Shown here one piece after another: positions 6,001-9,000 of a stretch of 64,000 nt of DNA. Made by a program: the position numbers. Source of the DNA: Escherichia coli O127:H6 str. E2348/69 (GTDB taxonomy: Bacteria > Pseudomonadota > Gammaproteobacteria > Enterobacterales > Enterobacteriaceae). Location: the NCBI RefSeq assembly GCF_000026545.1, contig NC_011601.1, one strand, 5' to 3'. Numbering within the stretch: position 1 is the first letter of the stretch; every line of letters begins with the position of its first letter.

Positions 6001-9000
6001 TAAAACGAAAAATCAACTTGATGCAAACATTCAGCGCCTCAATTATTCACTCGACATTGCCAACGCGGCAGGAATTAAAAAGCCCGTATACAGTAATGGT
6101 CAGGCCGTTAAAGATGATCCCGATTTCTCTATTTCTCTCGGCGCTGATGGTATTGGACGTAAACTGGAAATTGAAAAAGCGGTTACTGACGTTGCGGAAT
6201 TGAACGGTGAATTACGTAATCGTCAATATCTTGTTGAGCAATTAACAAAAGCAAATGTTGATGACGTTAAATTCATTCCGTTTAAATATCAATTAAGCCC
6301 ATCGTTGCCGGTGAAAAAAGACGGTCCGGGTAAGGCTATTATTGTGATCCTTTCCGCGTTGATCGGCGGGATGGTGGCTTGTGGTGGTGTGCTGTTGCGT
6401 CATGCGATGGCATCCAGAAAACAGGATGCCATGATGGCAGACCACTTAGTTTAAATCTTTGCGGTTGAAGGTGCCGTTCGTCCGAGCGGCACCACGAGCG
6501 GCGTTCCGGCAACCGGATCGTCAATTATCATGCAGCGCAGACCATAAATGCGCTCGATCAGTTCAGCAGTGACAATCTCTTTCGGCGCTCCCTGAGCAAC
6601 AATTTTCCCTTCCCGCAATGCAATCAAATGGCTGGCGTAACGACAGGCCTGATTAAGATCGTGCAGCACCGCCGCGAGGGTATAGCCTTTCTCGCGGTTC
6701 AGTTCGCTTAACAGTTCCAGTAGATCAATCTGATGACTGATATCCAGCCAGGTCGTGGGTTCGTCGAGCAGCATAATTGCCGTTTCCTGGGCCAGCACCA
6801 TCGCGATCCACGCTCGCTGGCGTTGTCCGCCAGAAAGGGTGTCCACGCTTTGATCCGCCAGATGAGTTATTCCCGTGGCCTGCATCGCTTTTGTTACCGC
6901 GTCTTCATCTTCTTTGCGCCAGCGGGTAAATAGCGGTTGATGCGGGTAACGCCCACGCGCCACCAGCTCTTGCACGGTGATATCGCCCGGAGTGGTAGCA
7001 TTTTGCGCCAACAGACCAATCCGGCGTGCAACCTCTTTACTGGCGTAATGTTGAATGTGCTCGCCATCCAGCCAGACATGCCCGTGAGCAGGCGTCATCA
7101 GGCGGCTTAAGGTACGCAGTAACGTGGATTTACCACAGCCATTTGGCCCGATAATCGCCGTGAAGTGACCATCAGGTATTTCTACAGTCAGATTTTCCGC
7201 AACGGTATATTTGCCATATCCGAGGGTTAACTGTTCGCCGCGCAAACGGGCTACTGATTCGGTCATTTTTTGCGAGACTCCTGAATTAACAAGACGATAA
7301 GGTAAATACCGCCGAGGCTGACGGTAACGACGCCAACCGGAAGTTGATACGGCATAAACAGTTGTTGGGCGCAGAGATCGGCCACCAGCAGTAACAGCGC
7401 CCCGCACAGCGCCGCCTGGGTCAGCCCCCAGCGAGCGGTGCCACTAATGCGTCGGGCAATGTGCGGCGCGACTAAAGCAATAAAGGAAATCGGCCCCGCC
7501 AGGGCAGTGGCAGCTGCGGTAAGCACTACGGCGACCAGCATCATTAACAGCCGCGAACGTTCGACGCTGACGCCCAGCGCACACGCGGTATCATCGCCCA
7601 TTTCCAGCAAGCGCATTCGCCGCACCAGCAAGGCAGCGGCAATTAACATTAATATAATGATGGGTGCGGAAGGTGAGGTTTTTGCCCACGTCAGGCCATT
7701 GAGCGATCCGGCATTCCACAAACCCGCTGTTAGCGCCGTTTCTAAAGACGCTTTCAGCAACAGCCAGGTATTAAAGGCCACCAGCATGGCGCGAACGCCG
7801 ATACCGATAATAATCAACCGAAAGGTGTCGATACCGTTACGCCAGGCGAGCAGCCAGACCAACAGCGAAGTGACAATGCCGCCCACCATTGCTGCCAGGG
7901 CGATAGCCGTCAGGTCCTGACCAAACAGCACCATCGCCACCAGCACGCCGCTCCACGCCCCGGTGTTAAAGCCCATTACGTCAGGGCTGCCGAGCGGGTT
8001 ACGCATCAGCGACTGAAAAATCGCGCCGCTGACGCCCAGCGCCGCGCCAATCAACAGCGCCATCAGCACGCGTGGTAAACGCCATTCGGTGACCACCATC
8101 GTCATACTGCGCGGCGCATCGCCCATCAGCGCGGCGAATACCTGCGAGGTTTCCAGCGTGACGGCACCGCTGCGTAATCCCCACACGCCTGCCATTACAC
8201 AAGCTATTAGCAACAGTAGACAGGTGATAATTAATCGGCGAGAGACGTAAATCATGCGCCACCTCGCGTTTTACGTCGTACGAGGAAGATCAGCACTGGT
8301 GCACCAATAAAGGCACTGACTACAGAAACGCGCAGTTCGCCGGGAACAATCACCCGCCCAATGATATCGGCAAACAGCAGCAGGGCAGGGGTAGCGAGTA
8401 GCGTGACGGGCAGCGACCAGCGATGATCGGCACCTACCAGCCAGCGCGCCATGTGCGGCATCATCAGGCCAATAAAGGCAATCGGGCCAACTACCGCCGT
8501 CGCACTACCACAAAGCACGGTAATTGCCAGCAGACCAATCAACTGTGTGCGCGCTACGCGACTGCCCAGCGCCGTCGCGGTGTCACTGCCAAGGCTTAAA
8601 CTGTTCAGCGCGCGGCTCAGTAATAGCGCGGTTGCTCCGGCGGTAAGCACCGGGATCAGCACCACTTTTAAGGTATGTAGATTGCGAATATCCAGCGAAC
8701 CGGCTTGCCAGAAACGCAGTTGATCGTAGACGTCAGGATTAAGCAGGGCGATGCCGCTGGTCAGCCCTTCCAGCACCGCCGCCAGCGCCACGCCCGCCAG
8801 GGTTAAACGCACCGGACTTAACTGCCCGCCGCCCTGGCTGCCGGTAAAGGCAACAATCAATGACGCCACCAGCGCGCCGGCGAAGGCCATCATCAGTTGC
8901 TCCTGCGCGGATGAGTAACCAAACAGCGCCGCACCCAGCACAATGGCAAAGCTGGCTCCGGCATTCACGCCAAGTAAGCCGGGGTCGGCAAGTGGGTTTC

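Follow-up and report, generated by a model that had tools for sequence, protein, structure and literature searches.

Where do transcripts end when two converging genes leave no room for a terminator between their stop codons? The question is raised by a stretch of 64,000 nucleotides (nt) of the chromosome of Escherichia coli O127:H6 E2348/69, an enteropathogenic (EPEC) strain. This stretch, hereafter the window (RefSeq NZ_LT827011.1, 544001–608000, + strand, 100% identity), includes the fep/ent iron-uptake locus and holds four very tight convergent junctions: fepE/fepC, entS/fepB, ybdD/hcxA and ybdL/ybdM. We read them as ordinary tight junctions, and we think it somewhat probable, judging from the sequence, that their transcripts undergo Rho-dependent termination past the stop codons and are then trimmed to stem-loops embedded in the partner genes.

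Geometry of the convergent junctions

Stop codons were located from the sequence and from a mechanical list of open reading frames (ORFs), and cross-checked against the RefSeq annotation made by the Prokaryotic Genome Annotation Pipeline (PGAP) and the curated annotation of K-12 MG1655. At the first junction (6451–6454) the TAA of fepE (6452–6454, + strand) and the stop of fepC (6451–6453, − strand, reading TTA) overlap in a shared TTAA. At the second (10615–10623) the TAA of entS (10615–10617, +) and the stop of fepB (10621–10623, −) are 3 bp apart, separated by the spacer TGC. At the third (21555–21560) the TAG of ybdL (21555–21557, +) abuts the stop of ybdM (21558–21560, −), with a gap of 0. 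Sequence, ORF list and RefSeq agree on these three pairs, which lie exactly as the original prediction had described them. The RefSeq annotation of the window yields a fourth tight pair that was absent from that prediction, ybdD/hcxA (19188–19202), in which the TAA of ybdD (19188–19190, +) and the stop of hcxA (19200–19202, −) flank a 9-bp spacer (19191–19199). The spacers between stops are therefore −4 bp for fepE/fepC, 3 bp for entS/fepB, 9 bp for ybdD/hcxA and 0 bp for ybdL/ybdM; those of the remaining five convergent pairs of the window measure 40–120 bp. The geometry is identical in the annotation of K-12 MG1655. The pair ybdL/ybdM lies outside the iron-uptake locus, and neither this pair nor ybdD/hcxA consists of iron-uptake genes.

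Could the abutting stops be an artefact of annotation, the true stops lying elsewhere? This is a general possibility, to which one may add that fepE is a pseudogene in E2348/69. But stop positions are mechanical, and PGAP and the curated K-12 annotation agree on them. The C-termini of YbdM (...AWTVK) and YbdD (...GGARCC), each immediately followed by its stop, are conserved in relatives, and FepC, EntS and FepB align with their relatives over the full length. For practical purposes we consider the artefact refuted.

FepC (6451–7266, − strand; 271 amino acids) has a C-terminus that reaches the fepE stop and exceeds that of Citrobacter, Salmonella and Klebsiella by about 6 codons. In other Escherichia species FepC aligns over its full length with 98–99% identity, and FepE, with 85–95% identity, stops in the same place. 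Thus fepE/fepC shows both features of the class of 4-nt stop-stop overlaps, a shared tetramer and two real genes with conserved C-termini. The stops of entS/fepB, ybdD/hcxA and ybdL/ybdM do not overlap, so that no tetramer is shared.

Frequency of tight junctions in the genome

For the genome background we used the annotated genes of eight 50-kb samples distributed over the same chromosome (400 kb), which gave 58 convergent pairs of coding sequences (CDSs). Their median stop-to-stop gap is 42.5 bp. Nine of the 58 (15.5%) overlap, and in five the overlap is exactly 4 bp (folM/ydgC, tus/fumC, rlmF/ybiO, yliI/gstB and yfiM/kgtP), and none has a gap of 0–9 bp. Four of the nine convergent pairs of the window are tight, which relative to this sample is a marginal and post hoc enrichment (binomial p=0.038, Fisher p=0.063); two further 50-kb samples hold three tight pairs apiece. 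The near-abutting but non-overlapping class (0–9 bp) looks rarer than the overlaps, with 3/9 pairs in the window against 0/58 outside (Fisher p=0.002, also post hoc). Two of these three junctions flank one two-gene segment, hcxA-ybdL, and may therefore be non-independent.

Across E. coli, 58 convergent overlaps have been reported, with a peak at 4 nt made by the tetramers TTAA, CTAA, CTAG and TTAG (Lillo and Krakauer 2007, PMC2174442), and a recent preprint counts 704 convergent pairs. Tight convergent junctions are thus an ordinary arrangement, not one special to the iron-uptake locus.

Search for terminators and transcripts crossing the junctions

Terminators were searched for by a consensus scan and by a scan for hairpins followed by a U tail, with 200 random antisense-CDS segments as background. 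In most of the eight directions neither scan found a canonical hairpin-plus-U-tract terminator within 100 nt past the stop, and no GC-rich palindromic hairpin lies between the stops of any of the four junctions. The same scans detected strong terminator hairpins in the spacers of ahpF/uspG, dpiA/dcuC, cspE/crcB and tatE/lipA, which served as positive controls; at the tight junctions they gave weak candidates only. Downstream of entS, fepB, ybdD and hcxA there is no candidate at all within 100 nt. Candidates like those after fepE, fepC and ybdM are present in 7–22% of the background segments; the hairpin after ybdL is the sole unusual one, an equally strong hairpin occurring in 1.5% of them. 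The A tract and T tract that flank a bidirectional terminator were not found, the embedded hairpins having at most 4–5 T in the next 8 nt, and no Rfam family lies at or near any junction, either at the gathering threshold or with E up to 1.

Since there is no intergenic room and no canonical terminator nearby, transcripts that contain the stop codon must extend into the partner gene. To this extent the obligatory antisense overlap that had been proposed for these pairs stands. Published K-12 transcripts agree: entS-fepB, ybdL-ybdM and ybdD-hcxA, though not fepE-fepC, belong to the 165 convergent pairs whose 3' transcription overlaps in half or more of 58 RNA-seq data sets of K-12 (ExcludonFinder, 2025, PMC12288877). 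That study cites entS/fepB as a functionally related pair and gives short intergenic distance as a property of convergent excludons; most of the other tight pairs of our genome sample are in its list too. The special significance implied for the overlap finds no support. Complementary 3' ends are produced by 276 of 370 E. coli convergent operons, with a mean overlap of 286 nt (Conway et al., PMC4161252), so that convergent 3' overlap is usual in E. coli even where there are terminators, and about 15% of the convergent pairs of this genome have a tight or overlapping junction.

Stem-loops embedded in the partner genes

The RNA just past each stop was folded locally and its stability expressed as a z-score relative to 200 shuffles. 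Two junctions are structured: downstream of fepE, fepC, ybdL and ybdM z ranges from −2.0 to −5.3, as against +0.7 to −1.4 downstream of entS, fepB, ybdD and hcxA. At entS/fepB (z of −0.5 and −1.4) and at ybdD/hcxA local structure is significant in neither direction.

On the fepE side (a 121-nt region, z=−3.3, 1/200 shuffles equally stable) the stem-loop GGUGCCGUUCGUCCGAGCGGCACC (6470–6493, + strand), with a 10-bp stem, begins 16 nt past the fepE stop, inside the fepC CDS. It has no U tract and is followed by a stretch where C exceeds G (C/G 1.7–1.8 at +79 to +118), and we regard it as a candidate hairpin for protecting the fepE transcript or for pausing. On the fepC side (z=−2.0) the stem-loop GGCAUCC-UGUUUUCU-GGAUGCC (6409–6430, − strand) lies about 20–40 nt past the fepC stop, inside the 3' coding end of fepE; a weaker alternative hairpin (6439–6427), followed by UCCUGUUUUC, overlaps it. 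Conservation of this stem-loop is limited to Escherichia. A conserved element in the fepE 3' end was considered and rejected: 25 cross-genus sequences gave no consensus structure.

On the ybdL side (z of −2.6, 0/200 shuffles as stable) a stem-loop of 12 + 4 bp (21582–21622, + strand; free energy, dG, −16.4) lies about 25–65 nt past the ybdL stop, inside the 3' coding end of ybdM, and precedes UUGCUUCAGG, a poor U tract. The stem is largely preserved in relatives, one pair showing a compensatory change, and the stem-loop is a candidate either for an embedded terminator of ybdL or for a hairpin that protects its transcript. The idea that this hairpin tracks the adjacency of ybdL was dropped, the sample being too small and the pattern mixed. 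The ybdM side is the most structured of the gene-end regions tested (z −5.25, 0/200 shuffles): two stem-loops (21464–21552, − strand) lie just past the ybdM stop, in RNA complementary to the final ~100 nt of ybdL. Structure at the 3' end of ybdL is biased to this strand (antisense z −4.9 versus sense z −2.2). In relatives the region has z-scores of −1.1 to −3.5, and the outer stem persists in both Citrobacter and Kosakonia with compensatory changes at 4 pairs, on a comparison of 5 sequences only. In Kosakonia, which retains this stem, ybdL faces dsbG instead of ybdM.

Tight junctions were then compared as a group with other gene ends, using the 103 nt that a converging transcript carries past its stop. 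The 24 tight gene ends (8 from the window and 16 from the genome sample) have a mean folding z of −1.35, and 29% of them reach z≤−2. Control gene ends, taken as the antisense of the CDS end, have a mean z of −0.19 with 1% at z≤−2 (n=84, p=4e-4 versus tight). The antisense of the CDS end at spaced convergent junctions gives −0.49 and 9% (n=100, p=0.006). The real 3' regions of spaced junctions are at −3.51, with 78% at z≤−2 (n=100, p=6e-7). On the sense strand the effect is weaker (p=0.08). Thus some tight junctions hold embedded stem-loops, but the class is far less structured than normal 3' ends. This intermediate level, above the background of coding antisense and well under normal 3' regions, is the quantitative addition of the present analysis.

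Mode of termination

How then would these transcripts end? Steady-state Rho-dependent transcripts end just past stable stem-loops that lack U tracts, with C exceeding G downstream, as a result of exonucleolytic trimming (Dar and Sorek 2018, PMC6061677). On this model RNA polymerase would pass each stop and transcribe the antisense strand of the partner gene. The antisense RNA, untranslated, C-rich and G-poor, would let Rho load, and termination would be diffuse, within about 100–400 nt. Exonucleases working 3' to 5' would then trim the RNA to the first stable stem-loop, embedded in the partner CDS at fepE/fepC and ybdL/ybdM; at entS/fepB and ybdD/hcxA, where such a stem-loop is absent, the 3' ends would probably be heterogeneous. 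Head-on collisions of polymerases may contribute as well under strong induction of both partners, as for the Fur-controlled fep/ent genes under iron starvation. The outcome would be a short, obligatory overlap of sense and antisense 3' ends, with a regulatory effect that is probably small. Rho dependence, trimming and any interference are what we infer here from the sequence; what the analysis shows directly is the geometry, the lack of canonical terminators, the embedded structure and the pattern among relatives.

Base composition was assayed as the C/G ratio in 78-nt windows downstream of the stops, a test for sites like those of Rho utilization (rut). In all eight directions a window with C/G ≥1.5 starts within about 150 nt of the stop. 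Several points nevertheless weigh against the Rho-and-trimming reading. Windows where C exceeds G are common in any antisense CDS (31% of background antisense windows exceed 1.3), so that the rut-like signal is unspecific. The embedded hairpins are made of conserved coding sequence, so that their conservation is weak evidence, and the hairpin at the fepE 3' end lacks a cross-genus consensus. Lastly, overlapping terminators are predicted by TransTermHP for 146 of the 165 convergent excludons (PMC12288877), which would favour intrinsic termination if it applies here.

Intrinsic, Rho-independent terminators embedded in the partner CDS would indeed do most of the termination on the main competing explanation, the end of one gene doubling as the terminator of the other. 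That such terminators must sit inside the partner CDS when convergent genes overlap was argued in 2007, and intrinsic terminators are predicted for 20% of the genes in convergent overlaps (Lillo and Krakauer, PMC2174442). The hairpins near the stops of fepE, fepC, ybdL and ybdM are compatible with it, as is the enrichment of structure at tight junctions. But a good U tract follows none of these hairpins, their like is found in 7–22% of random antisense segments except in the case of ybdL, and in the four directions of entS/fepB and ybdD/hcxA there is no candidate within 100 nt. We consider predominantly intrinsic termination unlikely, though a serious competitor.

Alternatively both transcripts could be ended by head-on collisions positioned by hairpins at the junction, as in the bidirectional terminator model (Ju 2019/Wang 2022). 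Wang, Ju and Liu propose that convergent pairs are terminated by hairpin-positioned head-on polymerase collisions; the model is offered for hundreds of E. coli convergent pairs, with terminators that neither resemble intrinsic ones nor need Rho. Hairpins near two of the four junctions fit it, and the near-consensus Fur box at fepD-entS goes with a co-induction of the fep and ent partners that would make collisions frequent under iron starvation. Collisions, however, need high simultaneous expression. We know of no indication that ybdL, ybdM, ybdD or hcxA are highly expressed; fepE is a pseudogene in E2348/69, and entS/fepB has no hairpin. As the principal mechanism, collision appears quite doubtful to us.

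The fepE pseudogene and control by Fur

The wzz(fepE) pseudogene (5321–6454, + strand) carries an in-frame TAG at 5552–5554; the K-12 gene is intact. Among 5426 E. coli genomes the exact 83-mer with this TAG occurs in three assemblies only, all of E2348/69, and the nearest genomes differ by 1 base. From this sequence evidence the nonsense mutation looks private to E2348/69. RNA left untranslated beyond a nonsense codon is a well-known substrate of Rho. The mutation probably reduces read-through from the fepE side by polarity, so that in E2348/69 fewer fepE-side transcripts would reach fepC than in K-12. Just past entF (5119–5158) there is an AT-rich hairpin with a 15-bp stem, followed by a T-rich tail and overlapping promoter-like hexamers (5130–5158). 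Given this hairpin and these hexamers, fepE may have its own promoter and be insulated in part from transcription of fes-entF.

All fep/ent operons are under repression by Fur. A Fur-box-like site (9269–9287, + strand) lies in the divergent fepD-entS promoter region, with 16/19 matches to the consensus and no equivalent in 100 shuffles. Taken together, this site and the known control by Fur suggest that the fep/ent partners are co-induced, not opposed: any interference would be mutual and simultaneous, and would make no switch.

A second Fur-box-like sequence, AAATGATAATCATTATT (11715–11745), was seen in the fepB-entC divergent promoter region. It has ~15/19 matches by eye, just beyond the 3-mismatch search that gave the site at 9269–9287, and is identical in K-12. 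The fepB leader of K-12 holds an additional GC-rich repeat of ~186 bp (GGGAGAGGG / GGGTGAGGG motifs; 7012–7200 of the K-12 locus, L098), which is missing in E2348/69 (11578–11600 of the window). One 3' end from published Term-seq data of K-12 (624680), at 170 nt upstream of fepB, falls close to the border of this additional segment.

Evolution of the junctions

Within the species, junctions were counted in 5426 complete E. coli genomes. The fepE/fepC junction (82 nt) is found in 5326, entS/fepB in 5375, ybdD/hcxA in 5419, and ybdL/ybdM, as a colinear segment of 600 nt, in 5409. All four are nearly fixed (98–99.9%). An apparent polymorphism of ybdL/ybdM (2256/5426 with an 83-nt megablast query) was rejected as a word-size artefact, given the count obtained with the 600-nt query.

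Between species the picture was drawn from a survey of the fepC neighbourhood, with one genome per species, which returned 80 Enterobacteriaceae loci. The 4-bp overlap of fepC and fepE is confined in this survey to Escherichia (E. albertii, E. whittamii, Escherichia sp.). The gap is 36 bp in a divergent E. coli and 30–56 bp in most Citrobacter and Salmonella; Klebsiella, Enterobacter and others have no fepE beside fepC. The spacers of relatives hold strong palindromic hairpins of the bidirectional-terminator type, e.g. GAAAAAGCCGGATAATCGCTATCCGGCTTTTT in Salmonella, with dG of −26 to −29, and that of the divergent E. coli a hairpin with dG −19.9. This hairpin is missing in Escherichia. The tight junction thereby gains a context: the bidirectional terminator of relatives is missing in one genus, and the upstream gene is extended across the former spacer. 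Also seen was a contig labelled Chryseobacterium sp. 18061 with a fep/ent locus of Enterobacteriaceae type (88% FepC identity), probably a contamination or a mislabelling.

The entS/fepB gap, 3 bp in Escherichia, varies across genera from −28 to more than 100 bp. It measures 40–110 bp in 44 of 73 species, with hairpins of the type of repetitive extragenic palindromes (REP) or other GC-rich hairpins inside; gaps below 10 bp occur in 15/73 species of scattered lineages.

As for the remaining two junctions, hcxA-ybdL, a divergent pair (19191–21557), exactly fills the interval that separates the stops of ybdD and ybdM. It is absent from C. freundii and C. rodentium, and there ybdM lies opposite ybdD with a spacer of 50–81 bp (a REP-type hairpin in C. 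freundii). An Escherichia-specific insertion was rejected, the segment being present also in C. amalonaticus and another Citrobacter. Both E. fergusonii and C. amalonaticus have a ybdL/ybdM gap of 0 bp, and another Citrobacter one of 13 bp; the gap of ybdD/hcxA is 9 bp in E. fergusonii and 98–144 bp in Citrobacter. In Kosakonia ybdL is opposite dsbG with a gap of 4 bp. In Kosakonia cowanii (locus L096, 1045–4161) three genes that encode Aldolase_II, Hydrolase and ARD domains are arranged divergently to ybdL; these methionine-salvage-like neighbours are consistent with the annotation of ybdL as a methionine aminotransferase.

Are the tight junctions then selected regulatory devices, excludons whose antisense overlap and interference tune the expression of iron-uptake genes? 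Their near-fixation in E. coli, the rarity of 0–9 bp gaps elsewhere in the genome (0/58), and the place of entS-fepB as a highlighted, functionally related excludon pair in K-12 (PMC12288877) could be read in this way. But fixation within a species is expected from recent common ancestry. The fepC/fepE geometry is not conserved outside Escherichia and that of entS/fepB is sporadic, and in relatives the gene order is unchanged, with spacers of the ordinary terminator or REP type. A geometry that is genus-specific or sporadic argues against a selected interference device, and the partners are co-regulated and not oppositely regulated. We judge selection for such devices improbable.

Two further ideas may be put forward jointly. 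Since Escherichia has neither the fepC/fepE bidirectional terminator nor an entS/fepB terminator, transcription of the Fur-co-induced fep/ent units may clash and yield duplex RNA specifically when iron is scarce, and the resulting attenuation, reciprocal and co-regulated, would set transporter/exporter ratios; or else the 3'-antisense element of ybdL might be a dedicated embedded terminator or an antisense RNA. Such attenuation would follow a different logic from the mutually exclusive excludon, and interference between co-induced iron-uptake units, if real, would affect the balance of enterobactin export and import. Taken together these ideas are a long shot.

Other features of the window

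Rfam matches at gathering score are present elsewhere in the window, none of them near the junctions: the small RNA sroC (63536–63698, −), a cspA-type thermoregulator upstream of and across cspE (42487–42935, +), the rnk leader (29410–29518, −) and STnc70 upstream of ahpC (25514–25607, +).

Comparison with known systems

The arrangement is already known: it is annotated, was classified in 2007 and, for three of the four pairs, is catalogued among overlapping transcripts. As a discovery it is of small importance, the junctions being in the reference annotation and the terminator problem having been analysed in 2007.

One parallel to the RNA ends proposed here is that of Rho-dependent ends with protective stem-loops (PMC6061677), candidate stem-loops without a U tract and followed by an excess of C over G being present after the stops of fepE, fepC, ybdL and ybdM. 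The differences are that the stem-loops here lie inside the CDS of another gene, that Rho dependence is deduced, and that two junctions have no stem-loop.

The excludon concept reportedly goes back to Sesto in 2013. As convergent excludons entS-fepB, ybdL-ybdM and ybdD-hcxA are listed by name in K-12, and fepE-fepC is unlisted (PMC12288877). The mutually exclusive expression that defines an excludon is unlikely for co-regulated partners under Fur.

Bidirectional terminators are what the relatives have. In Salmonella and the divergent E. coli the fepC/fepE spacer holds a hairpin made of an A tract, a GC palindrome and a T tract, REP-type hairpins separate fepB from entS in other genera, and in the window itself dpiA/dcuC, cspE/crcB and tatE/lipA have bidirectional terminators. 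In contrast, neither a terminator spacer nor such a hairpin is present at the four tight junctions.

With respect to the 4-nt stop-stop overlaps (Lillo and Krakauer 2007, PMC2174442), fepE/fepC is a typical case, its TTAA holding both stops. The junctions entS/fepB (3 bp), ybdD/hcxA (9 bp) and ybdL/ybdM (0 bp) differ from this class and belong to a rarer, near-abutting one.

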